Assembly (NCBI GenBank): GCA_963692865.2
Contig: OY843592.1
Span: forward strand, 1,088,001-1,152,000
DNA length: 64,000 nt
Reading direction: 5' to 3'
Origin: a bacterium
GTDB lineage: Bacteria > UBA8248
Part shown: one piece after another, positions 443 through 21,524 of the stretch
Layout: every line of letters begins with the position of its first letter
Position numbering within the stretch: the stretch's first letter is position 1
Position numbers and translations under genes: made by a program
The notes under the pieces: generated by a model
What the model was told of the DNA's origin: nothing
Databases searched by the model: none
The model's input: the letters and a program-made list of their open reading frames with translations, nothing else

Positions 443-444
443 AG

Positions 445-1749: not shown

Positions 1750-1766
1750 TGGGGGAGAGGCGATAG

Positions 1767-4364: not shown

Positions 4365-5345
4365 ATGGTTACCCTGCTCATCATTCTCGGAAAAGTGCTC
4401 GTGGGCTTCGGCGGGCTTTTGCTGCTCGCCGCCTACATGACCTGGATGGAGCGGCGCGTGTTCGCGCTCATACAGGTGCGCGTGGGCCCCAACCGCGTGG
4501 GCCCGGCGGGGCTTTTGCAGCCCATCGCCGACGGCATCAAGCTCATGTTCAAGGAAACCATCATTCCCGCCCAGGCGGACAAGGTGATTTACGTTCTGGC
4601 GCCGGCCATCACGCTCATACCGGCGCTCGCCGCATTCGCCGTGGTTCCCTTCGGCGATTCCGTGAGCGTACTCGGTCAGAAGGTGGACCTGGTGGTGGCG
4701 GACGTGAACGTCGGCATCCTCTACATCTTCGCCATGGCGGGCATCGGGGTGTACGGCATCGTGCTCGGCTCGTGGGCGTCGAACAGCAAGTATCCGCTCC
4801 TGGGCGGACTCCGCTCGGCGGCGCAGCTCATCAGCTACGAACTCTCGCTCGGCATGTCGCTTCTGGGCGTGGTGATGATCTCCGGCACCCTGAGCCTCAA
4901 GGGGATCGTCGAGGGCCAGGCCGGGATGCCCTACATCGTCTTGCAGCCCCTGGGCTTTCTGCTCTTCGTCGTCTGCATGCTGGCGGAGACGAACCGGGCG
5001 CCCTTCGATTTGCCCGAGGCAGAGAGCGAACTCACCGGCGGTTTTCATACCGAATACAGCAGCATGCACTTTGCGGTTTACTCCATCGCCGAGTACTGCA
5101 GCATGATTACGCTCTCGGCGGTGGGGGCGACGTTTTTCCTCGGCGGATGGCGCGGGCCGCTGCTGCCGCCCGTCCTGTGGTTCCTGATCAAGGTGCTGGC
5201 GTTCATGTTCTTCTTCATGTGGCTGCGCGCCTCCACGCCGCGCCTGCGCTATGACCAACTGATGGGTTTCGGATGGAAGGTGCTTCTGCCGCTCTCCATC
5301 CTGAACGTGATGCTCACGGCCGGCGCCGTCGTTTACCTGGGCTAG
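4365..5345 (+). CDS. nuoH: NADH-quinone oxidoreductase subunit H (copy 1)
   Basis: RVGPNRVGPAGLLQPIADGIKL, AETNRAPFDLPEAESEL and RYDQLM motifs. Confidence 0.97.
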   Translation: MVTLLIILGKVLVGFGGLLLLAAYMTWMERRVFALIQVRVGPNRVGPAGLLQPIADGIKLMFKETIIPAQADKVIYVLAPAITLIPALAAFAVVPFGDSVSVLGQKVDLVVADVNVGILYIFAMAGIGVYGIVLGSWASNSKYPLLGGLRSAAQLISYELSLGMSLLGVVMISGTLSLKGIVEGQAGMPYIVLQPLGFLLFVVCMLAETNRAPFDLPEAESELTGGFHTEYSSMHFAVYSIAEYCSMITLSAVGATFFLGGWRGPLLPPVLWFLIKVLAFMFFFMWLRASTPRLRYDQLMGFGWKVLLPLSILNVMLTAGAVVYLG

Positions 5346-5372
5346 CAGGCTGCTCGATAGGGGGAAGGTTCC

Positions 5373-5852
5373 ATGTTAGGCGAGATTTGCAGGGGGTTGT
5401 GGCTGACGATCAAGCATTCCTTCAAAAACCGCGTGACCGTGCAATACCCCGACGTCAAGGAGGAGATGCCGGTGGGCTACCGCGGCCTCCACAAGCTGCT
5501 GCGCTGGGAGGACGGCCTGGAGCGCTGCGTGGGGTGCAAGCTCTGCTCGGCGGCGTGTCCGGTGGACTGCATTTACGTGGAATCGGAGGAGAACGACCCC
5601 GATGCGCCGACTTCCAAGGGCGAGCGCTACGCCAGCGTTTACGAGATCAACGAGCTTCGCTGCATCTTTTGCGGATACTGCGAGGAGGCCTGCCCGGTCG
5701 GCGCGGTCGTGCTGGGCAACGAGTATGAATTCTGCCAGGACGACCGGGGCAAGTTCCTCTACGAGAAGGGCGATTTGCTCGTGAAGCGGACGGAGGATTA
5801 TCCGGAGCTTCACGCCCGCTATGATGAGAAGAACCTGCTCACGTATGTCTAG
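5373..5852 (+). CDS. nuoI: NADH-quinone oxidoreductase subunit I
   Basis: Two CxxCxxCxxxCP motifs (CVGCKLCSAACP, CIFCGYCEEACP). Confidence 0.97.
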   Translation: MLGEICRGLWLTIKHSFKNRVTVQYPDVKEEMPVGYRGLHKLLRWEDGLERCVGCKLCSAACPVDCIYVESEENDPDAPTSKGERYASVYEINELRCIFCGYCEEACPVGAVVLGNEYEFCQDDRGKFLYEKGDLLVKRTEDYPELHARYDEKNLLTYV

Positions 5853-5897
5853 GTTTCGATTTCAGGCGGGCGCCCGCCCGCTGGAGGAAGGGCGGTA

Positions 5898-6416
5898 GTG
5901 GTCGGTTCCCTGTTTTTTTATTTCCTGGCGGCCGTGACGACGGTCGGCGCGGTAGCCGTCGTCGCGTTTCCCAGCCCGCTCTACAGCGTGCTCGCCCTGA
6001 TCCTGACCTTCCTGGGCCTCGCCGGGCTGTATCTCTCGCTTCACGCGCAGTTCGTCGCCATCGTTCAGGTGATCATCTACGCCAGCGCGATCATGATGCT
6101 CTTCCTGTTCGTGGTGATGCTGATCAACCTGGGCCGGGAGGAGAAGCGGGAGTTGCGCCTGCCCGGCCAGAAGCTGCTGGGCGCCATCGCGGGGCTCGCC
6201 GTTTTCAGCGTGCTGCTCAAGATTTTCCTCTCCACCTCCCTCATGACGGGGAAGAAGGGGAGCTTCCCGCCCGAGCGGGTGAGCGAGCTCGGCAACACGC
6301 AGGTGGTCGGAAATCTCTTGTTGACGGATTACGTCCTGCCGTTTCAGGCGATGGGCGTCCTGTTGTTCGTGGGCATCGTCGGCGCCGTGGTATTGGCGCG
6401 GCGGCGAAGCCGCTAG
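5898..6416 (+). CDS. nuoJ: NADH-quinone oxidoreductase subunit J (copy 1)
   Basis: Hydrophobic; QVIIYASAIMMLFLFVVML motif; operon position. Confidence 0.93.
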   Translation: MVGSLFFYFLAAVTTVGAVAVVAFPSPLYSVLALILTFLGLAGLYLSLHAQFVAIVQVIIYASAIMMLFLFVVMLINLGREEKRELRLPGQKLLGAIAGLAVFSVLLKIFLSTSLMTGKKGSFPPERVSELGNTQVVGNLLLTDYVLPFQAMGVLLFVGIVGAVVLARRRSR

Positions 6417-6428
6417 GAGGGGTGGAGC

Positions 6429-6731
6429 GTGGCGCCGCTCGAGCATTACCTGGTTCTGAGCGCGGTTCTCTTTTCCCTGGGGGTCGTGGGCGTCGTGGTG
6501 CGCAGAAACGCCATCGTCGTCATCCTGTGCATCGAGTTGATGATGAACGGGGCGAATCTGGCGTTCGTGGCCTATGGCCGATATCTCGATTCGATGGCGG
6601 GCCAGATGGTCGTGTTCTTCGTGATGGCGGTGGCCGCGGCGGAAGCCGCCATCGGTCTGGCCATCGTGGTGCTGATATACAGAAACCGCGAGTCCACGGA
6701 TCTCGACGAGATCAATCTACTGAAGTTATAG
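6429..6731 (+). CDS. nuoK: NADH-quinone oxidoreductase subunit K (copy 1)
   Basis: [14 protein letters not shown] and [10 protein letters not shown] motifs; 100 aa. Confidence 0.96.
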
Positions 6732-6743
6732 AGCTGAGGAATC

Positions 6744-8648
6744 ATGGATAGTCTGACCCTCATATTGGCGTTCCCCCTCATCGGCGTGCTGGTGAACCTG
6801 CTCTTCGGCTGGAAGCGCGGGGAGAAGTTCGCCGGCTGGACCGCGACGCTTGTGATGGCGCTCGCGTTCGCGGCGTCTCTCGCGGGCTGGCTCCGCCTTC
6901 TGGGGATGCCCGAGAACGGGCGGCTCATCCGCGTCGTCCTGTTCGAGTGGATTCCCGTGGGCGCCTTCGAGGTCAAGGCGAGCTTCTCGCTGGATCCGCT
7001 CTCCGCCGTCATGGCGCTCGTCGTCACCGGCGTCGGGACGCTCATCCACCTCTACTCGATGGGCTACATGCACGGCGACCGAGGCGTGGTGCGCTATTTC
7101 ATCTACCTGAACCTCTTCTCGCTCTCGATGCTCACGCTCGTGCTGGGCGACAACTTCGTGGTCATGTTCGTGGGCTGGGAGGCGGTGGGCCTTTGCAGCT
7201 ACCTGCTCATCGGCTTCTGGTACGAGCGCAAGGCGGCGGCCGAGGCCGGGAAGAAAGCCTTCATCGTGAACCGGGTGGGCGATTTCTGCTTCCTGATTGC
7301 GCTTTTCTACATCTACAGCGTCGTCGGCTCGCTGGATTTCCCGGCCGTGTTCTCGAAGGCCCCTCAGTTGCTCGGCCCCGAGAGCGCCGCGGCGACGATC
7401 ATCTGCCTGCTGCTCTTCGCGGGCGCCACGGGCAAGAGCGCGCAGATTCCGCTCTACGTCTGGCTGCCCGACGCGATGGAAGGCCCCACCCCGGTCAGCG
7501 CCCTGATTCACGCGGCCACCATGGTGACCGCGGGCGTTTACATGGTGGCGAGAGCGCACGCGCTCTTCGAACTCTCCTCCACGGCGATGCTGGTGGTGGC
7601 CGTCATCGGCGCGCTCACGCTGTTGATGGCGGCGTCCATCGCCCTGGTTCAGACCGACATCAAGAAAGTGCTCGCCTACAGCACGGTGAGCCAGTTGGGC
7701 TATATGTTCCTCGCGTGCGGCGTGGGGGCGTTCTCCGCGGCCGTGTTCCACCTCATGACCCATGCGTTCTTCAAGGCGCTCCTGTTCCTGGGCGCGGGAA
7801 GCGTGATACACGCGCTCGACGGCGAGCAGGACATCCGCAGGATGGGCGGACTCCAGGCGTCGCTCCCGCAAACGAGCAGCACCTTCATTATCGGCGCGCT
7901 CGCCATCGCGGGGATATTCCCCTTCGCAGGCTTTTTCAGCAAGGACGCGATTCTCTACGCCGCCATGACGGCGGAGCGCGGCGGCGTTCTCCTTTGGCTC
8001 GCGGGCGCGGCCGGCGCGCTCATGACGGCGTTCTACATGTTCAGACTCCTGTTCCGCGTGTTCTTCGGCGTGTGCAACCTGAGCATCGAGGAACAGCAGA
8101 AAGTCCATGAATCCCCGGCCAACATGACGCTTCCGCTCCAGGCGCTGGCGGCGCTCTCCATCGTCGGGGGCTGGGTGGGGATTCCCATTTTCACCGGCGC
8201 GAACCTTTTCGGCGATTTCCTCGCGCCCGTATTCGGCGGCCATGCCGAGGCGCACCACGAGGTGGTGTTCGAGATTCTGATGATGCTCTTCTCGCTCGCC
8301 GTCGCATTTTTCGGCATCTACGCGGCCTACAATCTGTATGTGCTCAAGCAAGACGGCGGCAGCGCCTACGCGGAACTCTGGCCGGGCGTCCACCGCCTTC
8401 TGCTGAACAAGTATTACGTGGACGAGATGTACGACGCCGTGATCGTCCAGCCCGTGAAGCGGGCGTCGATCTGGTGCTGGAGAGCGTTCGAGGACGGCCT
8501 GGTGGATGCGGCCGTGAACGGGGCGGGCTTTTTCGTGCGCTCGCTGGGCGGCGTGCTGAGGCGTCTCCAGACGGGCTACGTGAAGAGCTACGCCGTTTCG
8601 ATGCTGGTCGGCGCGCTGGTGATTCTGCTGTATCTCACGGCGCGATGA
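6744..8648 (+). CDS. nuoL: NADH-quinone oxidoreductase subunit L (copy 1, standard-length amphipathic helix)
   Basis: GKSAQIPLYVWLPDAMEGPTPVSALIHAATMV and THAFFKALLFL motifs. Confidence 0.97.
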   Translation: MDSLTLILAFPLIGVLVNLLFGWKRGEKFAGWTATLVMALAFAASLAGWLRLLGMPENGRLIRVVLFEWIPVGAFEVKASFSLDPLSAVMALVVTGVGTLIHLYSMGYMHGDRGVVRYFIYLNLFSLSMLTLVLGDNFVVMFVGWEAVGLCSYLLIGFWYERKAAAEAGKKAFIVNRVGDFCFLIALFYIYSVVGSLDFPAVFSKAPQLLGPESAAATIICLLLFAGATGKSAQIPLYVWLPDAMEGPTPVSALIHAATMVTAGVYMVARAHALFELSSTAMLVVAVIGALTLLMAASIALVQTDIKKVLAYSTVSQLGYMFLACGVGAFSAAVFHLMTHAFFKALLFLGAGSVIHALDGEQDIRRMGGLQASLPQTSSTFIIGALAIAGIFPFAGFFSKDAILYAAMTAERGGVLLWLAGAAGALMTAFYMFRLLFRVFFGVCNLSIEEQQKVHESPANMTLPLQALAALSIVGGWVGIPIFTGANLFGDFLAPVFGGHAEAHHEVVFEILMMLFSLAVAFFGIYAAYNLYVLKQDGGSAYAELWPGVHRLLLNKYYVDEMYDAVIVQPVKRASIWCWRAFEDGLVDAAVNGAGFFVRSLGGVLRRLQTGYVKSYAVSMLVGALVILLYLTAR

Positions 8649-8684
8649 TGGTTTTTACGGTTCTTTGAGGAGCGTGAGGGGCGA

Positions 8685-10241
8685 GTGCCTGGAATAATCA
8701 CCTCGATACTGTTTTTGCCCATGCTGGGGGGGCTGCTGCTCCTCCTCGCGCGCGAGGGCGAGGGAAAAGACGGCGGCGGCGTTCGCGCGTTCGCGCTGGC
8801 GGCGTCCCTCGCCACGTTCGCCCTCTCGGTCGTGATGTACCTGGGCTTCCGGCCCGGCGTCGCCGGGATGCAGTTCGTCGAGGAAGCGGCGTGGATCCCC
8901 AGATTCGGGATTTCCTATAAAGTCGGCGTGGACGGCATCAGCCTTCTGCTCGTGATGCTGACCACCATCCTGACGCCCGTGGCGATTCTCTTCTCCTTCG
9001 ACGACGTGCGCAAGAAGACGCGGCTCTACTACATGTCCCTGCTGTTCCTGGAGACGGGGATGCTCGGCGTGTTCTTCGCGCTTGATTTCTTCCTGTTCTA
9101 CGTCTTCTGGGAGGGGATGCTGATTCCGATGTACCTCATCATCGGGGTCTGGGGCGGCGGCAGGCGGATATACGCGGCCGTGAAGTTCTTCCTCTACACC
9201 ATGGCCGGAAGCGTGCTGATGCTCGTGGCTATCATCTGGCTCTATTTCGCGGGCGGGGTCGGCACGTTCGACATCCTCGCGTATTTCCGCGAGCCCGTGG
9301 ACCCCGCGCTCCAGCCGTGGCTGTTCGCCGCGTTCGCCATATCCTTCGCCATCAAGGTGCCGATTTTCCCGTTCCACACCTGGCTGCCCGACGCCCACGT
9401 GGAAGCGCCCACGGCGGGGAGCGTCATCCTCGCGGGCGTCCTGCTGAAGATGGGCACCTACGGCTTCATGAGGCTGGCGATGCCGCTGTTCCCGACGGCG
9501 GCGCGCGAGTTCGCGTTCCTCATCATCTGCCTGGCGCTGGCGGGGATCATCTACGGCGCGCTCATGGCCATGGTGCAGACCGACGTGAAGAAACTCGTGG
9601 CCTACTCCTCGGTGAGCCACCTGGGCTTCGTGATGCTGGGGCTTTTCTCCTTCAACCTGCTGGGGGCTTCGGGGAGCGTGCTGCAGATGGTGAACCACGG
9701 CATCAGCAGCGGGGCGCTCTTCCTGATCGTGGGCTTCATCTATTCGAGGCGGCATACGAGGCAAATCGAGGAGTTCGGGGGGCTTCTTCGCGTGATGCCC
9801 GTCTTCTCGACGTTCTTCATCATCACCGCGCTGAGCAGCATCGGCCTGCCGGGGCTGAACGGCTTCGTGGGCGAGTTCACGATTCTGCTGGGCGCATTCG
9901 AGCGCAACGCCTGGTTCGCGGCCGTCGCGGCCACCGGCGTGGTTCTCTCGGCCGTCTACATGCTCTGGATGCTGCAGCGCGTCCTGTTCGGCGAGGTGAG
10001 CGTGCGGGCGAACCTGGGGCTTGCCGACATGAACAGGCGCGAGTGGCTCGTCATGCTCCCCATGGTGGCCCTCATGTTCTGGATCGGGCTGTACCCCAAG
10101 CCGCTGTTCGAGCGGATCGAGCCTTCGGCCAAGGCCTGGCTCTCGCAGGTGAACCGAAGGGTGCTGCGCGTGGAGAAGGCGCCCGAGCGGGCGACGGGAA
10201 AGAACGCGCTCGCCTACGTTCAAAGACTCGAGGTGAAATAG
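8685..10241 (+). CDS. nuoM: NADH-quinone oxidoreductase subunit M (copy 1)
   Basis: PFHTWLPDAHVEAPTAGS, LLKMGTYG and LPGLNGFVGEF motifs. Confidence 0.97.
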   Translation: MPGIITSILFLPMLGGLLLLLAREGEGKDGGGVRAFALAASLATFALSVVMYLGFRPGVAGMQFVEEAAWIPRFGISYKVGVDGISLLLVMLTTILTPVAILFSFDDVRKKTRLYYMSLLFLETGMLGVFFALDFFLFYVFWEGMLIPMYLIIGVWGGGRRIYAAVKFFLYTMAGSVLMLVAIIWLYFAGGVGTFDILAYFREPVDPALQPWLFAAFAISFAIKVPIFPFHTWLPDAHVEAPTAGSVILAGVLLKMGTYGFMRLAMPLFPTAAREFAFLIICLALAGIIYGALMAMVQTDVKKLVAYSSVSHLGFVMLGLFSFNLLGASGSVLQMVNHGISSGALFLIVGFIYSRRHTRQIEEFGGLLRVMPVFSTFFIITALSSIGLPGLNGFVGEFTILLGAFERNAWFAAVAATGVVLSAVYMLWMLQRVLFGEVSVRANLGLADMNRREWLVMLPMVALMFWIGLYPKPLFERIEPSAKAWLSQVNRRVLRVEKAPERATGKNALAYVQRLEVK

Positions 10242-10242
10242 C

Positions 10243-11721
10243 TTGGAAATCGTTTATCCTGCGATCCATTGGGGATACCTGCTGCCGGTGATCCTGCCCG
10301 TGTGCGGGGCGGTGCTGGTGCTGATGTGGGACGCCTTTCTCTCCAGGGGGGAGCGCTCGGTCATCGTCCTCATCACGCTGCTGACGCTGGCCGCCGCCCT
10401 GGGACTGACGCTCGGCGCGCGCGCGCTGCCGGGTCTGGCCGCCTCGTTCGGCGGCATGTACCTCTTCGACGGGTTCACGCAGTTCCTCTACGTCGTCATC
10501 CTGTTCGCGAGCATATTCGCGGTGCTCATCGCCGCCGCCCAGCGGGAGCTGGACGATACGCCGGCGGGCGAGTACTTCGGCCTCATCCTCTTCGCGACTT
10601 CGGGCATGATGCTCATGGCGGCGACGCGGAACCTGCTGATGATCTTCGTGGGTCTGGAAGTGTTCTCGCTGTCGCTCTACGTGCTGGCGGGCTATCTCCG
10701 CTCGCGCCCCGAGGGCAACGAGGCGTCGCTCAAATACTTTCTGCTCGGTTCGTTCGCCTCGGGGTTTCTGCTCTACGGCATGGCGCTCGTCTACGGCGCG
10801 ACCGGCTCGGTCGATCTGGTCGAGATAGCCGCGCGCCTGCACGAGAATCCCGCCTCGCGCGGCGCCGCCTTCCTGACGGGTCTGGGCTTCATGGTGGTGG
10901 GCCTGGGCTTCAAGGTGGCCGCGGCGCCCTTCTACATGTGGACGCCCGACGTGTACGAGGGCGCGCCCACGGCGGTGACGGCGTTCATGTCCGTGGGTCC
11001 GAAGGCGGCGGCGTTCGCCGCGTTCTTCCGGGTTTTCCTCTCGGCGGGCGACGCCGGCGGAAGCTTCGATTCGGTCTTGTGGGTCATGGCCGTCCTCACG
11101 ATGAGCCTGGCGAACCTCGTCGCCATCTGGCAGACCTGCGTGAAGCGGATGCTCGCCTATTCGAGCATCGCCCACGCGGGCTATCTCATGGTCGCGCTGG
11201 TGGCCTCGCGCGCGAGCGCGGAACTGGCCACGAGCGGTTTCCTGTATTACATGCTCGTCTACGTCTTCATGAACATGGGCGCTTTCTGCGTCCTCATCCT
11301 CATCTCGAACGCGCGCGAGGACGGCGGCACGAAGATCGAGGGTCTCGCGGGTCTGGCCTCATTCCGGCCGGGACTCGCGGCGGCGATGGCCGTTTTCATG
11401 GTCTCGCTCTCGGGGCTTCCGCCCACCGGGGGTTTCGTGGCGAAGTTCCAGGTGTTCAGCGCCGCGCTGAACGGCGGCTACGTCTGGCTGACCGTGATAG
11501 CGGTGCTCAACAGCGTGGTGGCCGTGTATTACTACCTGCGCCTCGTCGTGGTGATGTACATGCGCGAACCCCGGGGCGAAGCAGCGAAGAGCGCGCCGCA
11601 TCCGGGCTGGTCCTATGCGGTCGCGGCGCTCACGCTCGCCGTCGCGAGCACCCTGCAACTGGGGATTTTCCCCTCCTCGGTGCTGGACTTCGCCCATCGA
11701 TCCGCAGTCTTTTTTAATTGA
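10243..11721 (+). CDS. nuoN: NADH-quinone oxidoreductase subunit N (copy 1)
   Basis: EASLKYFLLG, FKVAAAPFYMWTPDVYEGAP and KRMLAYSSIAHAGY motifs. Confidence 0.96.
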   Translation: MEIVYPAIHWGYLLPVILPVCGAVLVLMWDAFLSRGERSVIVLITLLTLAAALGLTLGARALPGLAASFGGMYLFDGFTQFLYVVILFASIFAVLIAAAQRELDDTPAGEYFGLILFATSGMMLMAATRNLLMIFVGLEVFSLSLYVLAGYLRSRPEGNEASLKYFLLGSFASGFLLYGMALVYGATGSVDLVEIAARLHENPASRGAAFLTGLGFMVVGLGFKVAAAPFYMWTPDVYEGAPTAVTAFMSVGPKAAAFAAFFRVFLSAGDAGGSFDSVLWVMAVLTMSLANLVAIWQTCVKRMLAYSSIAHAGYLMVALVASRASAELATSGFLYYMLVYVFMNMGAFCVLILISNAREDGGTKIEGLAGLASFRPGLAAAMAVFMVSLSGLPPTGGFVAKFQVFSAALNGGYVWLTVIAVLNSVVAVYYYLRLVVVMYMREPRGEAAKSAPHPGWSYAVAALTLAVASTLQLGIFPSSVLDFAHRSAVFFN

Positions 11722-11746
11722 CCTCCGGGGGTTGGTTTTTCGGTTG

Positions 11747-11770
11747 CCGCCATGATATAAGTCATGGCGG
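11747..11770. promoter_or_regulatory. Perfect 9-bp inverted repeat around a -10-like hexamer between the two nuo operons
   Basis: CCGCCATGA-TATAAG-TCATGGCGG; could be an operator, promoter or hairpin. Confidence 0.4.
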
Positions 11771-11892
11771 TTCGTTCGATTTCATGCATTTGATCCAGGG
11801 GTTTTCGAGGGGAATCTCCGCCCGGCGGCGACGATGAGGGCGGCCCATTTTCATCATCCCTGGCGGTTTGCGGTTTTTGTGGGGGTCCACGC

Positions 11893-12294
11893 ATGGATGC
11901 GATGGAGGTTCTGGGCGCTTTTTTCAGGGATTATCAGGCCATCAATCCCTACATCCCCATTTTCCTGATCACGCTCATGGCGGCCGCTCTCGCCGGGAGC
12001 ATTCTGATCATCGCGCTGCTCATCCGCCCGAACAACCCCGACCCCGAGAAAAACTCCCCCTATGAGTGCGGCATGCCCCCTCTGATGGAGGCGCACGAGC
12101 GCTTCTCCATCCGGTTCTACCTGCTGGGCATTCTGTTCCTGCTGTTCGACGTGGAGGCGCTGTTCCTCTTCCCCTGGGCGGTTCGCTACGACGCCCTCGG
12201 GCTGTTCGGATTCATCGAGATGATGCTGTTCATCGCCATCTTGCTGGTGGGTTATTTCTACGCTTGGAGAAAAGGAGCGTTGGAGTGGGCATAG
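11893..12294 (+). CDS. nuoA: NADH-quinone oxidoreductase subunit A
   Basis: [20 protein letters not shown] and WRKGALEW motifs. Confidence 0.96.
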
Positions 12295-12761
12295 TCGAGG
12301 GCAAGTTCAGCGACAACTTCATCACGTCGAAGGTCGACAGCCTGGTCGCCTGGGCGCGGAAGAGCGCGCTCTGGCCGATGACCTTCGGCCTGGCGTGCTG
12401 CGCCATCGAGATGATGGCCTCGGGCGCCGCGCGCTACGATTTCGACCGTTTCGGCGTGATCTTCCGGGCCACGCCGCGCCAGTCCGACGTGATCATCGTG
12501 GCGGGCACCGTCACCCACAAGATGGGGGACGCGATCCGCAAGGTCTACGACCAGATGCCCGAGCCGCGCTGGGTGATCGCGATGGGCAACTGCGCGACCT
12601 GCGGCGGCCCGTACGCGAACTACGCGGTGATGCAGGGAGTGGATGAAATCATCCCGGTGGACGTCTACGTTCCGGGGTGCCCGCCCAGGCCCGAGTCGTT
12701 GATGTGGGGCGTCATGCAGCTTCAGAAAAAGATTGAACAGGAAAAATACATCCGCAGATAA
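12285..12761 (+). CDS. nuoB: NADH-quinone oxidoreductase subunit B
   Basis: [17 protein letters not shown] and [10 protein letters not shown]2-cluster motifs; GTG at 12285 after AAGGAG (the ORF track start at 12066 is too long). Confidence 0.96.
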
Positions 12762-12788
12762 GAGCCATACGGCGCACAAGGGAAGAAG

Positions 12789-13370
12789 ATGCCCGAAGAA
12801 GTGGTGGAAAACAGCGAGCAGACGAACGGCGAAGCGGAGACCGCCGAGGCCGTGAAGGCCCCGCCCGGCGAGGACTTGAAGGCGGTGGTGGAGGCGGCGT
12901 TTCCGGGCGCGGTGCTTGATCAAAGCGCCTACGAGGACGATGAGGACGAGGCGACGTTCGTCTTAAGCGTCGATTCCATCGTCGAAGTGGCGGCGCATCT
13001 GCGCGATCACGGCGACGCGCTCTTCAAGCTCCTCACCGACTTGACGGCGGCGCACTATCCCGAAGCGGAAGACCCCTTCGAGGTGCTCTACCACCTCTAC
13101 AGCATCGAGCATAACCGCAGGCTGCGCCTCAAGGCGCGGATCAAGGATGGACAGTCCGTGCCCACGGTTTCAGGCGTATGGACCAGCGCGGACTGGATGG
13201 AGCGCGAGGTGTACGACTTGTTCGGGATCGAATTCGAGGATCATCCGGATCTCAGGCGGATTCTTCTGCCCGACAACTGGGGCAGCCATCCCATGCGGAA
13301 GGACTACCCGCTCGAGGGCAGGGGAGAGCGGATTTACACCAAGCCGACGCGCAAGGAAATCGGCGACTAG
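12789..13370 (+). CDS. nuoC: NADH-quinone oxidoreductase subunit C
   Basis: WMEREVYDLFGIEFEDHPDLRRILLP and HPMRKDYP motifs. Confidence 0.96.
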   Translation: MPEEVVENSEQTNGEAETAEAVKAPPGEDLKAVVEAAFPGAVLDQSAYEDDEDEATFVLSVDSIVEVAAHLRDHGDALFKLLTDLTAAHYPEAEDPFEVLYHLYSIEHNRRLRLKARIKDGQSVPTVSGVWTSADWMEREVYDLFGIEFEDHPDLRRILLPDNWGSHPMRKDYPLEGRGERIYTKPTRKEIGD

Positions 13371-13399
13371 AGCGGCGCAGCTTTTGAGGGAATGAGGAA

Positions 13400-14542
13400 A
13401 TGGTCGGCGTAGCGAATACCTCTCGTATCGAGCAGCAGAGCACCCTGCACGGGACCGAGGAACTCGTCATCAACATGGGTCCCCAGCACCCGAGCACGCA
13501 CGGGGTGCTGCGGGTGATCCTCAAGCTCGACGGCGAGACGGTGAACGACCTCGACTGCGACATCGGCTACCTGCACCGCGGCACCGAGAAGATCGGCGAG
13601 AACATCACCTACACGATGTTCATCCCCTATACGGACAGGCTCGACTACATCGCCGCCCCCTCGAACAATCTCGCGTGGGTGACGGCGGTGGAGAAGTTCT
13701 TCGACTGGGAGATCCCCATGCGGGCGCAGTACATCCGCTCGATGGTGGGGGAGCTCTCCCGCATCGCCAGCCATCTGCTCTGGCTCGCCACGCACGCCCT
13801 CGACATCGGGGCGATGACGGTGTTCCTGTGGTGCTTCAGGGAGCGCGAGATGGTGCTCGATCTCTTCGAGACGGCCTTCGGCGGCCGCCTGACGGTGAAC
13901 GCCTTCCGCCTGGGCGGCCTGCACGAGGACGTGCCGGACAAGTTCCTGCAGCTCACGCAGGAGTTCGTGGACATCTTCCCGAGCCGGGTCGACGACTACG
14001 AGACGCTGCTCACCAACAACCGCATCTGGCTGCAGAGAACGCGCGACGTGGGCATCATCTCGGCGGAAGACGCGATGGACTTGGGTCTCACGGGCCCCAT
14101 CATCCGGGGCAGCGGCGTGCGCTGGGACTTGAGGCGCGCCAAGCCCTACGCGGCGTACCCCTATCTCGATTTCGTCGTGCCCGTCGGCGAGAACGGCGAC
14201 ATCTACGACCGCTACCTGGTGCGGGTCGAGGAGCTTCGCCAGAGCACCCGCATCATCCAGCAGTGCCTGGAGCAGCTTCCCGGCGGGCCGGTGAGCTGCA
14301 AGACGCCCCGGACCATCAAGCCGCCCGAGGGCGAGATATACCACAGCATCGAAAACCCCAAGGGCGAGTTCGGCTTCTACATCGTGAGCGACGGGACGAC
14401 GACGCCCTACCGCGTCCGCATCCGGCCGCCCTCGTTCATCAACCTGGGCGGGCTCAAGAAGCTGTGCGTGGGGCAGTTGGTCGCGGACGTGGTGGCCATC
14501 ATCGGAAGCATCGACATCGTGTTGGGCGAGTGTGATCGGTAA
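13400..14542 (+). CDS. nuoD: NADH-quinone oxidoreductase subunit D
   Basis: NMGPQHPSTHGVLR, GYLHRGTEK, DRLDY and DIVLGECDR motifs; no hydrogenase CxxC motifs. Confidence 0.96.
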   Translation: MVGVANTSRIEQQSTLHGTEELVINMGPQHPSTHGVLRVILKLDGETVNDLDCDIGYLHRGTEKIGENITYTMFIPYTDRLDYIAAPSNNLAWVTAVEKFFDWEIPMRAQYIRSMVGELSRIASHLLWLATHALDIGAMTVFLWCFREREMVLDLFETAFGGRLTVNAFRLGGLHEDVPDKFLQLTQEFVDIFPSRVDDYETLLTNNRIWLQRTRDVGIISAEDAMDLGLTGPIIRGSGVRWDLRRAKPYAAYPYLDFVVPVGENGDIYDRYLVRVEELRQSTRIIQQCLEQLPGGPVSCKTPRTIKPPEGEIYHSIENPKGEFGFYIVSDGTTTPYRVRIRPPSFINLGGLKKLCVGQLVADVVAIIGSIDIVLGECDR

Positions 14543-14554
14543 GGAGTAGCTTCG

Positions 14555-15526
14555 TTGGACATGGCGCTTGAAGTCGCGGTCGCCGCGATAAAGATATTCA
14601 TCGTGGTCAACGTGGTGCAGCTCGTGGTGGCGTATATGATCTACGTCGAGCGGAAGGTCATCGCCCACGCCCAGTTGCGCCTGGGACCCATGCGCGTGGG
14701 CTGGCACGGGCTCCTGCAGCCCATCGCGGACGGGCTGAAGCTCTTCTTCAAGGAAGACATCATCCCCGACAAGGCGGATCGCATCGTGTTCGTGCTCGCG
14801 CCCGTGATGGTGCTGGTGCCCGCCCTGGTCGTCTACTCGGTGCTGCCCTTCAGCGCGACGTTCTACATCACGCAGATCAACATCGGGCTGTTCTTCGTTC
14901 TGGCGGTGAGTTCGCTCGGCGTGTTCGGCGTGGTGATGGCGGGCTGGGCCTCGAACAGCAAATACTCGCTTCTGGGCGCGCTGAGGAGCGCGGCGCAGAT
15001 GCTGAGCTACGAGATTTTCCTGGGCTTCTCCGTCATCGGACCGCTGATGCTCGCTGGCTCCCTGAACTTGCAGGAGATCGTGCACGCGCAGAGCGACGTG
15101 TGGTTCGTGTTCTACCAGCCCGTGGCGTTCATCGTGTTCTTCGTCGCGGCGCTCGCGGAGACGAACCGCGCGCCCTTCGATCTGCCCGAGGCGGAGACCG
15201 AGCTCGTGGCGGGCTTTCACACCGAATACAGCGGGATGAAGTTCGCGTTCTTCTTCCTGGCGGAATACGCCAGCATGATGGTCATATCCACGATAGGCAT
15301 CGTGCTCTTTTTCGGCGGATGGGACGGGCCGGATTTCATTCCGCTCCCCGGCTTCGTCTGGTACTGCCTCAAGCTGGGCGCCTTGATGTTCGTGTTCATC
15401 TGGCTGCGGGCGACGCTGCCGCGCTACCGCTACGATCAGCTCATGCGCGTGGGCTGGAAGTTCATGTTCCCGCTCGTGATGCTCAACATTTTCCTGACCG
15501 GATTCATCAAGTACCTGTTCTTGTAA
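14555..15526 (+). CDS. nuoH: NADH-quinone oxidoreductase subunit H (copy 2)
   Basis: GLLQPIADGLKL, AETNRAPFDLPEAETEL and RYDQLM motifs. Confidence 0.96.
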   Translation: MDMALEVAVAAIKIFIVVNVVQLVVAYMIYVERKVIAHAQLRLGPMRVGWHGLLQPIADGLKLFFKEDIIPDKADRIVFVLAPVMVLVPALVVYSVLPFSATFYITQINIGLFFVLAVSSLGVFGVVMAGWASNSKYSLLGALRSAAQMLSYEIFLGFSVIGPLMLAGSLNLQEIVHAQSDVWFVFYQPVAFIVFFVAALAETNRAPFDLPEAETELVAGFHTEYSGMKFAFFFLAEYASMMVISTIGIVLFFGGWDGPDFIPLPGFVWYCLKLGALMFVFIWLRATLPRYRYDQLMRVGWKFMFPLVMLNIFLTGFIKYLFL

Positions 15527-15545
15527 CTCGCGGGAGAGACGCAGG

Positions 15546-16055
15546 GTGGAGCTATATTTCTTTTATATGTTCGCGGGCGGGATGATAATCACATCCTTGC
15601 TGATGATCACGCGCGCGAACGTGATTCACGCGGCCCTGCTGCTGGTGCTGACGTTCTTCCAGCTGTCGGGCGTATTCGTGCTGGCGGGGGCGGAGTTCCT
15701 GGCGGCGGTGCAGATTCTGCTCTACGCGGGCGGCATCATGGTGCTCTACCTGTTTTCGATCATGCTGATGAACGTGGAGGTGGCCGTGCGGATGCGGCAA
15801 TGGCACCGCCAGGGCGTCGTGGTGTTCGTGGCGGCCATGCTTCTGGGCCTCGAAATCTGGGCCGTGCTGGGGGAGGTGGAGTTCGCGGCGCCCAGGCAGT
15901 GGGAGTGGTCGCTGGGCGCCACGCCGGGCAACGTCGAGGCCCTGGGCGCGGTCCTGTACACGAAATTCCTGTTCCCCTTCGAGGTGGCCTCCATCCTCCT
16001 GCTGGCCGCGATGATCGGCGCCATCGTCCTGGCGAAGCGCAGGATAGAGAGATAG
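15546..16055 (+). CDS. nuoJ: NADH-quinone oxidoreductase subunit J (copy 2)
   Basis: [15 protein letters not shown] and [10 protein letters not shown] motifs. Confidence 0.94.
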
Positions 16056-16074
16056 AGGGGAGAGAGAACCCGCG

Positions 16075-16377
16075 ATGATACCGATGACCCATTTCCTCGT
16101 CCTGGGCGCCGTTTTGTTCCTCATCGGCGCGATGGGCGTGCTGATGCGCCGCAACGCCATCATCATCCTGTTGTCCATCGAGTTGATGCTCAACGCCGTG
16201 AACGTGACCTTCGTGGGCTTCTCGCGCCACCTGGCGGATATGACGGGCCAGGTGTTCGCCATTTTCGTCATCACCGTGGCGGCGTGCGAGGCGGCCGTGG
16301 GACTCGCGATTCTCATCGCGCTCAACCGCGACCGCACGATGGTCAACGTGGACGAAGTCAACCTTTTGAAGTGGTAG
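16075..16377 (+). CDS. nuoK: NADH-quinone oxidoreductase subunit K (copy 2)
   Basis: [17 protein letters not shown] and [10 protein letters not shown] motifs. Confidence 0.96.
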
Positions 16378-16384
16378 GGGAATC

Positions 16385-18409
16385 ATGATCGAACTGGCCT
16401 GGCTCATTCCCGTTTTCCCGGTGATCGGGGTTCTGATCAACGGATTGTTCGGAAGGCAAGTGGGCGAGAAGGCGGGCCCCGTCGCCTCCGTCATGGCGGG
16501 CCTGTCGCTTCTCGTGGTGCTGGGCATCGCTGTGGAGATGATCTTCGGCGCGGGCGGCAGCCACACCGTGCCGCTCTGGACGTGGGTGGAGGCGGGCAGC
16601 TTCAGCGCCTCGATGAGCTTCCTGATCGATCCGCTGAGCACCATCATGCTGCTCGTGGTGGCGGGCGTGGGCTTTCTGGTGCACGTCTACGCCGTGGGCT
16701 ACATGCACGGCGACCCGGGCTATCCGCGCTTTTTCACCTATCTGAACCTTTTCATGCTCTCGATGTTCCTCCTCGTGCTCGGCGACAACTATCTCGTCAT
16801 GTTCGTCGGCTGGGAGGGCGTGGGCCTTTGCAGCTACCTGCTCATCGGCTTCTGGTACGAGAAGCAGTCGGCGTCGGACGCGGGCAAGAAAGCGTTCATC
16901 GTCAACCGGATCGGCGACGCGGGCTTTCTGCTGGGCATGTTCCTCATCTGGACGCTGACCGGCAGCCTCACCTACGCGGAAGTCTTCAAGGCGGCGCCCG
17001 AGATGAGCGCGGCGGCGGCGTCGGCCGTCGGCCTTCTGCTGTTCGTCGGCGCGGTCGGCAAGAGCGCGCAGATTCCGCTCTACGTCTGGCTGCCCGACGC
17101 CATGGAGGGCCCGACCCCGGTGAGCGCCCTCATCCACGCCGCCACCATGGTGACGGCGGGCGTCTACATGGTCGCGCGCACGAGCCCCATCTACGTCATG
17201 GGGCCGGACGCGATGAGCGTCATCGCCGTCGTCGGCGCGCTCACGGGCCTGTTCGCCGCGAGCATCGGCCTGGTGCAGAACGACATCAAGCGCGTGCTCG
17301 CCTACAGCACGGTGAGCCAGCTCGGCTTCATGTTCATGGCGCTGGGCGTGGGCGCCTTCACGGCCGGCATCTTCCACCTGATGACGCACGCCTTCTTCAA
17401 GGGCCTGCTCTTTCTGGGGAGCGGCAGCGTCATCCACGCGCTTCACCACGCGCCCGAAGAACAGCAGCAGGACATGCGCTACATGGGGGGCCTCAAGGAC
17501 AAGATGCCCGTGACGTACTGGACGTTCCTGATCGGCGCAATCGCCATCGCGGGCGTGCCGCCGCTGGCGGGCTTCTGGAGCAAGGACGAGATTCTGGCGA
17601 ACGCCTTCTTCACGGGACACTACACGGTCTGGATCATGGGAACGGTCGCGGCGTTCATGACGGCCTTCTACATGTTCCGGCTCATCTTCATGACGTTCCA
17701 CGGCGAGATGCGCGTGGACCATCACGCGCGCGAGCACATTCACGAATCACCCGCCACGATGACGGTTCCGCTCGTCATCCTGGCGGTCCTGAGCGTCATC
17801 GGCGGCGTGATTCCCGGCTTCCCGCCCGAGGCCGGCTGGATACACCGCTTCCTGGCGCCCTCGCTGGCGAAGGCGCCGGCGGGCGGCCACGCCATGGACC
17901 AGGGCGCGCATTTGATGAACGCCGCGGCCGGAGGCGGCGGGCACAGCGGACCGGCGGTGGTGTTGCTGATCATCCTGGCCATCGCCGTCGCCGTGGGCGG
18001 CATCGCCCTGGCGTGGCACATGTACGTGAGGGACACGGAAGCGCCGAATCGCCTGTATGAGCGCTTTACGGGCATGTATCGCCTGCTTCTGGAGAAATAC
18101 TATATCGACGAAATCTATCAGGCGGCCATCGTCGAGCCGACCTACAAGCTCATGCGCGTCCTGTGGACCTTCGACGCGAAGGTGGTGGACGGGGCGGTGA
18201 ACGGCAGTTCGCTCATCACCGTGATATCGAGCCGCTTCTCGGGCGTTTTCGACCTCCGGACGGTGGACGGGGCGGTGAACGGCACGGCGAGCTTCATCCG
18301 CTTCTTCTCCCAGGTATTCAAATACCTGCAGTCCGGCATGGTTCAGAATTATCTTTTCGTGATGCTGTTGGGCATCTTCGTGATGCTGAGCGCGTACCTT
18401 TTCCGCTGA
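16385..18409 (+). CDS. nuoL: NADH-quinone oxidoreductase subunit L (copy 2, amphipathic helix lengthened by 26 aa)
   Basis: Same core motifs as copy 1; the C-terminal FDxxxVDGAVNG unit occurs twice, 26 residues apart. Confidence 0.96.
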   Translation: MIELAWLIPVFPVIGVLINGLFGRQVGEKAGPVASVMAGLSLLVVLGIAVEMIFGAGGSHTVPLWTWVEAGSFSASMSFLIDPLSTIMLLVVAGVGFLVHVYAVGYMHGDPGYPRFFTYLNLFMLSMFLLVLGDNYLVMFVGWEGVGLCSYLLIGFWYEKQSASDAGKKAFIVNRIGDAGFLLGMFLIWTLTGSLTYAEVFKAAPEMSAAAASAVGLLLFVGAVGKSAQIPLYVWLPDAMEGPTPVSALIHAATMVTAGVYMVARTSPIYVMGPDAMSVIAVVGALTGLFAASIGLVQNDIKRVLAYSTVSQLGFMFMALGVGAFTAGIFHLMTHAFFKGLLFLGSGSVIHALHHAPEEQQQDMRYMGGLKDKMPVTYWTFLIGAIAIAGVPPLAGFWSKDEILANAFFTGHYTVWIMGTVAAFMTAFYMFRLIFMTFHGEMRVDHHAREHIHESPATMTVPLVILAVLSVIGGVIPGFPPEAGWIHRFLAPSLAKAPAGGHAMDQGAHLMNAAAGGGGHSGPAVVLLIILAIAVAVGGIALAWHMYVRDTEAPNRLYERFTGMYRLLLEKYYIDEIYQAAIVEPTYKLMRVLWTFDAKVVDGAVNGSSLITVISSRFSGVFDLRTVDGAVNGTASFIRFFSQVFKYLQSGMVQNYLFVMLLGIFVMLSAYLFR

Positions 18410-18433
18410 TGCGATGAGGTTTTTGGAGGAACT

Positions 18434-19984
18434 ATGAGCAACATGCCGCTTCTTACGCTGATCACCTTCCTGCCCGCGGCGGGCGCGGTGATTATCATGC
18501 TCTTCATGAAGAAAGAGCAGACGAAAGCCATCAAGGGTTTCGCCACGGCGGTGGCGGTCTTGGACTTCCTGATTTCGCTCCCCCTCTGGTTTCAATTCGA
18601 TCAGTCCGAAGCCGGTTTCCAGTTCGTGGAGAAGGTGAGCTGGATACCCACCATCGGGGTGAGCTACTTCGTCGGCATCGACGGGATCAGCGTGCTGCTC
18701 GTCCTGCTCACGACGCTGACGATGATCGTGGGGGTCGTGTGCTCGTTCACCGCCATCGAGGAGCGCGAGAAGGAATACTACGTCTGCCTCCTTCTGCTGG
18801 CGACCGGCATGCTGGGCACCTTCATCGCGCTCGACATCTTCCTGTTCTACGTGTTCTTCGAGGTCACGCTGGTGCCGATGTATTTCCTCATCGGCGTCTG
18901 GGGCGGGCCGAGGAAGCTCTACGCGGCGATCAAGTTCTTCCTCTACACGCTGTTCGGCAGCGTGTTGATGCTGCTGGGAATCCTGGCGTTCTACTTCGCC
19001 AACCTCAAGATGGGCACCGGAACCCTCACGTTCGACCTGGTGGAGCTCTACGGCGTGGGACCGAAGATACCGCTCTCGCTCCAGATATGGATTTTCCTGG
19101 CGTTCTTCATCGGCTTCGCCATCAAGGTTCCCATGTTCCCGTTCCACACCTGGCTGCCGGACGCGCACGTGGAAGCCCCCACGGCGGGCAGCGTGATCCT
19201 GGCGGGCATCCTCCTGAAAATGGGAACCTACGGGTTCGTGCGCTTCGCCCTGCCCCTGCTGCCCCAGGCGAGCCAGGTGTTCGTGCCCTTCATGGTGCTT
19301 CTCTCGATCATCGGCATCATCTACGGGGCGCTGGTGGCCATGGCGCAGACCGACATCAAGAAGCTGGTGGCCTACTCCTCGGTGAGCCACCTGGGCTTCG
19401 TGATGCTGGGCGTATTCGCCCTGAACGAGCAGGGCGTGCTCGGCGGACAGCTCCAAATGATCAACCACGGGATCAGCACGGGCGCCTTGTTCCTCCTGGT
19501 GGGCGTCGTTTACGAGAGGCGCCACACGCGCCTCATCTCCGATTACGGCGGCCTCTCGAAGGTCGTGCCGGTCTATACGGTGCTCTTCGCCATCACGATG
19601 CTGAGCAGCATCGGACTGCCGGGGCTGAACGGGTTCGTGGGCGAGTTCCTGATCCTCATCGGCGCGTTCAAGAAGAGCTACGTGTACGCCGCGTTCGCCG
19701 TCATCGGCATCGTCCTGGGGGCGGCCTACATGCTCTGGCTCTTCCAGCGGGTGTTCTTCGGGAATCTGGACAATCCCGAGAATGAGAAGCTCACCGACTG
19801 CAACGCGCGCGAGGTGCTCTACCTTCTGCCGCTGGTCATCCTGATGTTCTGGATCGGCCTCTATCCCAAGCCGTTCCTCGGGAGGATGGAGGCGAGCGTG
19901 AAGAAGGTCGTGAAGATGGTGAACGCGGCGGAGGTTCCGCAAAAGGCCGCGCTCGGCAAAATAACGAAGCTCGAGAAAAGATAA
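18434..19984 (+). CDS. nuoM: NADH-quinone oxidoreductase subunit M (copy 2)
   Basis: PFHTWLPDAHVEAPTAGS and LPGLNGFVGEF motifs. Confidence 0.96.
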   Translation: MSNMPLLTLITFLPAAGAVIIMLFMKKEQTKAIKGFATAVAVLDFLISLPLWFQFDQSEAGFQFVEKVSWIPTIGVSYFVGIDGISVLLVLLTTLTMIVGVVCSFTAIEEREKEYYVCLLLLATGMLGTFIALDIFLFYVFFEVTLVPMYFLIGVWGGPRKLYAAIKFFLYTLFGSVLMLLGILAFYFANLKMGTGTLTFDLVELYGVGPKIPLSLQIWIFLAFFIGFAIKVPMFPFHTWLPDAHVEAPTAGSVILAGILLKMGTYGFVRFALPLLPQASQVFVPFMVLLSIIGIIYGALVAMAQTDIKKLVAYSSVSHLGFVMLGVFALNEQGVLGGQLQMINHGISTGALFLLVGVVYERRHTRLISDYGGLSKVVPVYTVLFAITMLSSIGLPGLNGFVGEFLILIGAFKKSYVYAAFAVIGIVLGAAYMLWLFQRVFFGNLDNPENEKLTDCNAREVLYLLPLVILMFWIGLYPKPFLGRMEASVKKVVKMVNAAEVPQKAALGKITKLEKR

Positions 19985-20018
19985 ACGGATTTTCGCTTGA
20001 ATTGATGGAGTTTTTCTG

Positions 20019-21524
20019 ATGCTGGAAGTGGTGATTCCCGACATCGCCCTGTCGCTGGCGCTTCCCGAGATAGGGCTGGCCGTACTCGTCTGCGCGGTCC
20101 TCATTCTCGACCTGTTCGTGTCGCTCGAGAACAAATCCCGCGTGGGCGTCGTGGCGTTCGTGGGGGTCGTGATCCTGGGGCTCGTCGCCTTCGGGCAATG
20201 GGGCGAGGGCGCGAGAACGACGTTCAGCGGCTTCTACGTGGTCGACAACCTGAGCGTGTTCGTGAAGGTGTGCGTGCTGCTCTGCACGGCCATCTCCATC
20301 CTGCTGCTGCTTCAATACGCCAGGGTGGAGAAGATCAATTTCGGCGAACTCTACGCCATGCTGCTCTTCTCGGTGTTCGGAATGCTCGTGATGGCCTCGG
20401 GCAACGATTTGATTACGGTCTATCTGGGGCTCGAAACCATGAGCATCAGCATCTATGTGCTCGTGGCGTTCATGCGGCACGACCCCCTGAGCCGGGAGGC
20501 GGGACTCAAGTACTTCCTGATGGGCGCCTTCGCTTCGGGCGTTCTCCTCTACGGCATGGCCCTGACGTACGGGTTTACCGGAACGACCTCGATTCGCGGG
20601 ATCGCGGCGGCGTTCGCAGGCGCGGGCGGCGCCGCCATCGCGCAGAACCCGGTGATGATCTTCGGTCTCATCCTCCTGGTGGCGGGCTTCGGTTTCAAGC
20701 TGGCGCTGTCGCCGTTCCACATGTGGCTGCCCGACGCCTATACCGGCGCGCCGACGCCGATCACGGGCTTCATGTCCGTGGCCGTCAAGTTCGCGACCGT
20801 GGCCGCCCTGATGCGTATCTTCTTCGTGGCGTTCCCGGCCATGGCGGACAGGTGGAACGCCCTGTTGTGGGCGCTCACGGCCTTCACGCTGGTGTGGGGG
20901 AACGTGGCGGCCATCGCCCAGACGAGCCTCAAGCGCATGCTGGCGTATTCGAGCATCGGGCACGCGGGCTACGTGCTGATGGGCGTGGTGGCCACCATGA
21001 GCGTCGTGGACGGGAAGGCGACGTTCACCGACATCGGCATCAGCGCGGTGGCGTTCTACCTGCTCGCCTACCTGTTCACGAACCTGGGGGCCTTCGGGAT
21101 GCTGATCCTCGTGTGCCGCGACGGCTACCGGGGCGACAACATCGAGGACTGGAAGGGAATCGGCCAGGCGCACCCCTGGGCGGGGATGGCCTTCGTGGTG
21201 TTCCTGCTCTCGCTGGGCGGCATCCCGCCGACGGCCGGCTTCGTCGGCAAGCTCTACCTGTTCGCAGCAGCCGTGCAGAACGAGTATTACTGGCTCGCCG
21301 TCATCGGGCTGGTGATGAGCGCGGTCTCGATGTACTACTACGGGCGCATCATCATGGTGATGTACATGGAGAACCGGGGCGAGAGCCAGGAGGTGATGAG
21401 CTTCTCGAGCGCGCCCTCGCTGTTCTTCGCGCTGGTGGTGCTCGTGGTGGCGACGCTGCTGCTGGGCATCTTCCCGGGCAGCTTCCTCGACGCGGCGAAG
21501 GGCACGGTCGCCGGGTTTATCTAG
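20019..21524 (+). CDS. nuoN: NADH-quinone oxidoreductase subunit N (copy 2)
   Basis: EAGLKYFLMG, FKLALSPFHMWLPDAYTGAP and KRMLAYSSIGHAGY motifs. Confidence 0.96.
   Translation: MLEVVIPDIALSLALPEIGLAVLVCAVLILDLFVSLENKSRVGVVAFVGVVILGLVAFGQWGEGARTTFSGFYVVDNLSVFVKVCVLLCTAISILLLLQYARVEKINFGELYAMLLFSVFGMLVMASGNDLITVYLGLETMSISIYVLVAFMRHDPLSREAGLKYFLMGAFASGVLLYGMALTYGFTGTTSIRGIAAAFAGAGGAAIAQNPVMIFGLILLVAGFGFKLALSPFHMWLPDAYTGAPTPITGFMSVAVKFATVAALMRIFFVAFPAMADRWNALLWALTAFTLVWGNVAAIAQTSLKRMLAYSSIGHAGYVLMGVVATMSVVDGKATFTDIGISAVAFYLLAYLFTNLGAFGMLILVCRDGYRGDNIEDWKGIGQAHPWAGMAFVVFLLSLGGIPPTAGFVGKLYLFAAAVQNEYYWLAVIGLVMSAVSMYYYGRIIMVMYMENRGESQEVMSFSSAPSLFFALVVLVVATLLLGIFPGSFLDAAKGTVAGFI

Follow-up and report, generated by a model that had tools for sequence, protein, structure and literature searches.

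A lengthened lateral helix in the NuoL of a second, NuoEFG-lacking complex I: a lineage trait usually found beside a single nuoM

The stretch of DNA analysed here (the window; 64,000 nucleotides [nt], positions 1,088,001 to 1,152,000 of contig OY843592.1 in the UBA8248 assembly GCA_963692865.2) carries two complex I operons, the second of which encodes a NuoL subunit with a lengthened lateral helix (HL). In this gene, nuoL-2 (16385–18409, forward strand, as are all features below; 674 amino acids [aa]), an HL module stands twice in tandem, which a preliminary description of the window had taken as the mark of a hidden fourth pump, that is, of a cryptic complex with two NuoM subunits (2M). The long HL is no proof of such a pump, because its usual neighbour is a single nuoM: among the matches listed, 49 of the 55 complete long-HL operons have just one. 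Judged from the sequences compared, the long HL is a lineage trait of such operons and not by itself the sign of a fourth pump. The explanation that we consider best, at a probability of roughly 45% as a whole, is that nuoL-2 would encode subunit L of a second complex I lacking NuoEFG, built from nuoABCDHJKLMN and an unlinked nuoI, and would belong to an ancient and widespread NuoL group in which one HL module, with a 26-codon period and the motif FDxxxVDGxVNG, has undergone tandem duplication. The enzyme would stay L-M-N, with the lengthened HL as a longer brace whose second motif copy would rest on NuoN and whose anchor, transmembrane helix 16 (TM16), would lie one module further along, toward NuoK/NuoJ. 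This architectural part, a three-subunit arm with a longer brace anchored toward NuoK/J, is drawn by analogy and offered a little more tentatively than the whole.

The duplication is visible in the DNA. An exact 23-mer, GGTGGACGGGGCGGTGAACGGCA, occurs inside nuoL-2 at 18184–18206 and again at 18262–18284, a spacing of 78 bp or 26 codons; a search allowing up to three mismatches returned these two matches in the whole window, whereas none of 100 shuffled sequences yielded a match. The translation around it reads ...FDAKVVDGAVNGSSLITVISSRFSGV-FDLRTVDGAVNG..., or, over a longer span, ...WTFDAKVVDGAVNGSSLITVISSRFSGVFDLRTVDGAVNGTASFIRFF..., and each HL module carries the FDxxxVDGxVNG motif. Unit 1, the inserted module, covers residues 596–621 (18170–18247; FDAKVVDGAVNGSSLITVISSRFSGV), and unit 2, which aligns to the single unit of the NuoL of operon 1, covers residues 622–647 (18248–18325; FDLRTVDGAVNGTASFIRFFSQVFKY), both being delimited by translation and alignment. 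What had been called an exact 26-aa duplication is exact in its 26-codon period and its 23-nt core only, since the two units agree at 10 of 26 residues by a manual count on the translation; unit 1 also starts one base later than the 18169 first given, its F codon (residue 596) being 18170–18172. NuoL-1 (6744–8648, 634 aa), the short-HL protein of the 14-gene operon 1 (assigned from Pfam, translation, alignment and a control structure prediction), does have the unit once, as FEDGLVDAAVNG, in agreement with the preliminary description.

Structure prediction places both units in a single helix. In an AlphaFold2 (AF2) model of NuoL-2 (92-sequence alignment; mean predicted local distance difference test score [pLDDT] 86.4, predicted template modelling score 0.84), DSSP assigns one unbroken helix to residues 573–649 and then the TM16 anchor helix to residues 653–673 (18341–18403), within and beyond an HL that spans residues 571–651 by its landmarks KYYIDE ... 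LQSG (18095–18337). The pLDDT of the helix ranges from 56 to 85, with values of 85, 77 and 75 over residues 591–620 and of 62, 68 and 56 over residues 621–650. In the NuoL-1 control (pLDDT 88.7), the helix covers residues 556–633. From the K of KYYxDE to the G of Q[ST]G, the models count 80 residues in NuoL-2 versus 55 in NuoL-1; the helix is thus predicted to be lengthened by about 25 residues, an estimated ~37 Å at 1.5 Å per residue, which is roughly the width of one antiporter-like subunit. The NuoL-2 model matches solved NuoL chains with Z of 47–54, although its core superposes, at 1.6–2.0 Å, only as far as about model residue 588–597, and the aligned range reaches TM16 in 0 of the 50 structure-comparison rows shown.

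The company kept by the long HL was surveyed with profile A1, made from the C-terminal 150 residues, which was scanned against one genome per species and returned at least 80 loci. The loci among the matches listed, joined with the regions from relatives, gave 96 NuoL rows, which are loci and not independent lineages, and all counts of HL length and nuoM number refer to this set. Measured from KYxVDE to the last Q[ST]G, HL length is bimodal: 53–54 residues, or mostly 77–79 with four rows at 81–87; NuoL-2 has 78 residues, versus the 53–54 of the short forms. A long HL is accompanied by one nuoM in 49 rows, by two in 6, and by nothing beyond the L+M pair itself in 5, with 2 further rows cut by a contig end; a short HL goes with one nuoM in 22 rows and with two in none, the other 12 being of other arrangement or cut. 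Every 2M operon sampled is therefore long-HL, yet a long HL is rarely paired with a second nuoM, and long-helix NuoL in single-nuoM operons, which the preliminary description had proposed to look for, turned up in abundance. The tally has been corrected for L090, scored as short only because the contig ends inside the gene, and for three apparent extra genes that proved to be artefacts: the "MM" of L058 is one frameshifted nuoM, the "NN" of L116 a split nuoN, and the "MMM" of L080 a split nuoM. Long-HL operons with one nuoM bear at least nine named phylum labels (Acidobacteriota, Aquificota, Binatota, Omnitrophota, Tectimicrobiota, Zixiibacteriota, Ignavibacteriota, Myxococcota and Planctomycetota) and are of the type ABCDH(I)JKLMN, with nuoEFG absent between D and H. 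Their subunit sizes are like those of short-HL, single-nuoM operons (NuoJ 170 vs. 166, NuoK 100 vs. 100, NuoM 527 vs. 526, NuoN 493 vs. 484). Two other layouts were encountered along the way. Five Acidobacteriota loci (L056, L079, L080, L103 and L110) have a long-HL nuoL followed by nuoM, with no nuoN or other nuo gene in flanks of 6–8 kb; and a Tectimicrobiota locus (L051), in the order E,F,H,J,K,N then J,K,L,M,N, joins a partial nuo set without L and M to a long-HL JKLMN set.

The HL insertion is old, lineage-wide and under purifying selection, and is neither recent nor private to this genome. Relatives were searched in 41 genomes, of which 23, the present one (G000) included, make up the genus. 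Full-length NuoL-2 orthologues are found in 20 of the 23 genus genomes (85–100% identity) and two more are split by contig ends; none was found in the remaining one, whose genome is 79% complete. Both repeat units are present in all genus orthologues, in G026 (same order) and in 7 of 7 genomes of a class-level family (f4), and the order ABCDHJKLMN with one nuoM recurs in all 11 relatives' regions that span the whole operon. Within the genus (19 coding sequences), the insert has a ratio of nonsynonymous to synonymous polymorphism (pN/pS) of ~0.17, against 0.13 for core residues 1–440, and across seven distant sequences the D, G, V, N and G of the motif are invariant in both copies. The third codon positions of the two VDGAVNG copies (18178–18207 and 18256–18285) tend to change together from species to species, as GGG/GGG, GGC/GGC, GGA/GGA and GAT/GAT (loci L003–L030), while the 21-nt cores are identical at 21/21 positions in 9 of 20 genus sequences and at 18–20/21 in the other 11. 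This synonymous covariation suggests gene conversion between the two copies, with the DNA being homogenized, a process that would explain how an exact 23-mer can persist in an old duplication.

The insertion of NuoL-2 occupies the same alignment columns as that in NuoL of the six 2M operons, which come from Thermodesulfobacteriota or "Deltaproteobacteria" (FGHIJKLMMN) and from Nitrospirota (GIJKLMMN and BCDGIJKLMM). The preliminary description was thus right that the insertion has about the size and place of that in 2M complexes, for which passages of PMC9040806 and PMC6606698 describe an HL insertion of similar size and position. Operon 2 accordingly has the HL insertion of ~26 residues associated with 2M complexes and no second nuoM in its cluster, a combination that its relatives share. 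Trees of NuoL were built without the HL region. The FastTree analysis unites NuoL-2 with Tectimicrobiota, class relatives and the 2M NuoL of Nitrospirota in a starred clade of 25 rows, and under an IQ-TREE mixture model it falls in a 14-row group that is entirely long-HL (Shimodaira–Hasegawa-like approximate likelihood ratio test 93). HL state changes five to six times on the NuoL trees, one of the six on the FastTree tree being the mis-scored L090, and nuoM state changes three times, one of them the L058 artefact. The 2M operons lie among near relatives that are long-HL with one nuoM, and gain and loss of nuoM are indistinguishable on these trees. A NuoM tree (FastTree, with long-branch warnings) places NuoM-2 in a clade of single NuoMs from long-HL operons and NuoM-1 in a different clade; in the same tree, single NuoMs group with neither 2M paralogue. 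The motif copies are near identical where nuoM is single; in the 2M NuoL of Nitrospirota, whose accompanying second NuoM is very divergent, copy 2 has degenerated.

The most serious challenge to an L-M-N arm with a longer brace is the proposal that the long HL serves as a ruler and draws in the product of the one nuoM twice, so that NuoM-2 would fill both middle positions of an L-M-M-N arm and operons with two nuoM genes would have arisen later by duplication and divergence. We regard this as possible but on the whole unlikely. Several of our own results count for it and against the three-subunit arm. HL lengths are of two classes that differ by about the width of one subunit, and this pattern, together with the strong conservation of both motif copies, would fit a ruler for one more antiporter-like subunit and favours that alternative. 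An L-M-N arm would need new contacts, of the motif on NuoN and of TM16 on NuoK/J, where an L-M-M-N arm would need only an M–M interface. The position of the 2M operons amid long-HL, single-nuoM nearest relatives would be expected if a homomeric pair preceded gene duplication. The case for the three-subunit arm has further limits: the AF2 models are of monomers and silent on docking; the loci sampled lean toward relatives of the query; profile A1 matched 11 sequences in the PDB, the five alignments printed showing the motif once in each and the other six being uninspected; and a literature search turned up neither a structure nor a stoichiometry for any long-HL enzyme, be it with one NuoM or two. 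The ruler proposal is further served by the match of the insertion to 2M NuoL in place and size, by the association itself (6 of 6 2M operons are long-HL, and none of the 34 short-HL rows is), by the near identity of the motif copies where nuoM is single as against the degeneracy of copy 2 in the Nitrospirota 2M NuoL, and by two class relatives (G027 and G028) in which a homomeric pair is the only pair possible. The same idea is one of two options raised in a passage of PMC9040806. Against it, identical subunits would have to occupy non-equivalent surroundings, and the NuoM tree puts the single NuoMs with neither paralogue of the 2M operons. We know of no complex I, Mrp or Mbh member in which one gene product takes two positions in the antiporter row, which also speaks against the proposal.

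Other ways of accommodating the extra span fare worse. Conceivably, the insert could be a tolerated relic, for instance of the loss of a second nuoM, that bulges or loops out and leaves TM16 at its usual site on NuoN. Such a history would sit well with trees that cannot tell nuoM loss from gain and with the lower amphipathicity of the insert (hydrophobic moment 0.24 vs. 0.43 in unit 2), but we think it improbable in the face of purifying selection on the insert, motif residues that are invariant in both copies across phyla, the narrow range of long-HL lengths, and a predicted continuous helix whose pLDDT is 75–85 over the insert. Still less probable is an unlinked, non-homologous membrane protein that fills the span: the nuoI of this enzyme is itself unlinked, which demonstrates that unlinked subunits occur, but no candidate was found, and a flank search across the class detected no conserved extra membrane gene beside the operon, the only conserved flanking gene being thyX, shared downstream of it in family f4. 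The preliminary description had also suggested that NuoM-1 (8685–10241; Pfam, NuoM tree) is borrowed from the neighbouring operon to take the fourth position beside NuoM-2. The two operons do stand in tandem in the genus, and also in G026 and four of the seven f4 genomes; borrowing is nevertheless not a general answer, since G027 and G028 (2.1 Mb, 95% complete) keep the long-HL operon without operon 1 and have exactly three PF00361 genes each, namely L, M and N. Many long-HL, single-nuoM operons of other phyla likewise lack a neighbouring operon in the fetched flanks, and NuoM-1 and NuoM-2 fall in different clades, so that this explanation is scarcely credible. In the relative G029, operon 1 lies on a different contig.

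Set beside known systems, the enzyme of operon 2 shares features with several of them. With the 2M type of complex I (Chadwick et al., 2018, according to passages of PMC6606698 and PMC9040806; e.g., Nitrospira CI_1, clade 3; PMC6606698 describes the Nitrospira 2M cluster), it has in common the length and columns of the HL insertion; the Nitrospirota 2M NuoL groups with NuoL-2, and both clusters are without nuoE or nuoF. Operon 2 differs in having one nuoM, in having nuoH, and in being without nuoG and an in-operon nuoI, whereas the Nitrospirota loci read (B)CDG-IJKLMM(N); NuoL-2 also keeps both motif copies, unlike Nitrospirota, where copy 2 is degenerate. The closest published parallel is in other organisms and is likened here by description: the 26-aa HL insertion of the Nitrospira 2M NuoL is also reported for Complex_I_1 and Complex_I_2 of "Ca. 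Manganitrophaceae", which have canonical gene content and, like operon 2, one NuoM (Yu et al., 2022, in a passage of PMC9040806). Those authors propose there that the complexes are able to accept extra pumps or are in evolutionary transition. The long-HL, single-nuoM state is therefore already in print, and the present operon adds another case. Canonical NuoL (that of operon 1 and those of Escherichia coli, Thermus thermophilus and Mycobacterium smegmatis) has the same fold and works with the same L, M and N set, but its HL is about 25 residues shorter and bears the motif once.

A precedent for a brace that reaches toward the K/J module may be found in MrpA, whose helix spans antiporter-like subunits before the chain continues into a NuoJ-like domain; the MrpA of this genome likewise has a NuoJ-like stretch after its antiporter domain. 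Here the HL of an L-like subunit runs across antiporter-like subunits and is followed by NuoJ-like sequence, much as the long HL of NuoL-2 may do in relation to NuoN and NuoK/J, although Mrp is a different complex with no redox module and the likeness is an analogy. In Mrp, the HL connects the transmembrane helix 7 elements and braces the complex, according to a passage of PMC7419157.

The question bears on how gene content is read. Published work treats the HL insertion as diagnostic of a fourth proton pump, but in this sample most of its occurrences come with no second nuoM. Either many four-pump enzymes escape a count of genes, or the insertion is a poor guide and the helix can anchor elsewhere. 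Both outcomes affect the proton-to-electron ratios assigned from genomes, for example when reverse electron transport is modelled for autotrophs. Were the ruler proposal true, at least nine phyla would have a homomeric L-M-M-N arm as the normal state of their complex I lacking NuoEFG, from which the known 2M operons would have descended later by gene duplication.

NuoL-2 itself is a NuoL by family scores, domains and architecture: it has Proton_antipo_M (2e-88) and Proton_antipo_N domains in Pfam, exceeds the NCBIfam cut-offs for NF005141 (761.2 bits; cut-off 556) and TIGR01974 (758.1 bits; cut-off 407.5), matches the NuoL fold in its AF2 model and ends in HL and TM16. Its operon, nuoABCDHJKLMN (11893–21524; open reading frame [ORF] map and Pfam), contains A, B, C, D, H, J, K, L, M and N and is without E, F, G and I, as fits a complex I lacking NuoEFG. 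The genes nuoA-2, B-2, C-2, D-2, H-2, J-2 and K-2 occupy 11893–16377, with none of nuoE, F, G or I among them by Pfam assignment of each ORF. Downstream of nuoL-2 lie nuoM-2 (18434–19984; Pfam, and 645 bits on NDH_I_M in NCBIfam) and nuoN-2 (20019–21524; Pfam, and placed within the N clade of an M/N tree); L2, M2 and N2 together comprise 1691 residues. That operon 2 has one nuoM, as first described, is confirmed, and a Proton_antipo_M search found no orphan nuoM in the whole genome, which is 97% complete. The NuoB-2 translation contains CC...C...C(PP), seen by eye and unscored, which may represent the cluster N2 cysteines. Operon 1 comprises a complete nuoA–N set, with nuoABCD just upstream of the window and nuoE–N at 8–11721, and the two operons, of 14 and 10 genes, stand head to tail with a gap of 171 bp (11722–11892).

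In all, the genome has eight Proton_antipo_M genes, of which six (L1, M1, N1, L2, M2 and N2) are in the window; the remaining two, MrpA and MrpD, are accounted for by an Mrp operon elsewhere (L001; G000:C1:3654000-3660400), which encodes an MrpA with MbhD/MbhE and a NuoJ-like C-terminus together with MrpB, C, D, E and G. A ninth PF00361 match in one genus relative (G008) is a 208-aa fragment and not an extra antiporter gene. Two genus relatives also carry a duplicated fragment of the nuoN-2 3′ end a few kb downstream of the operon (L049:12704-13159 and G008:C1:2107869-2108285).

The absence of nuoI from operon 2 had been read as a sign of a mix-and-match system in which the two operons exchange parts. 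It is explained instead by an unlinked nuoI paralogue, which would supply a NuoI without such exchange, at G000:C1:761585-762133 (43% identity to NuoI-1; 120.8 bits on TIGR01971, cut-off 113.05). The paralogue is also present in G027 and in G028, where the counterpart scores 129.9 bits on TIGR01971 and is the sole nuoI match. By its sequence, a NuoI-type 2×[4Fe-4S] subunit is available to the operon 2 enzyme from outside the operon. The gene is flanked by trxB and a DHH-family gene (G000:C1:760606-762133; L133:6606-8133), and the same three-gene order is found in G028 (L134). No role for this trxB as an electron-input module is claimed, as its NCBIfam equivalog is thioredoxin reductase.

Contigs from metatranscriptomes offer a weak hint that operon 2 is transcribed. 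Those from four libraries (runs X7, X19, X20 and X21, two of them labelled sponge metagenome) cover 11893–21524 at 90–99% likeness. One contig of 533 nt spans 18160–18690, including the repeat and the L/M junction, with five differences, and another of 3762 nt runs from the 3′ end of nuoL-2 through nuoM-2 and nuoN-2.

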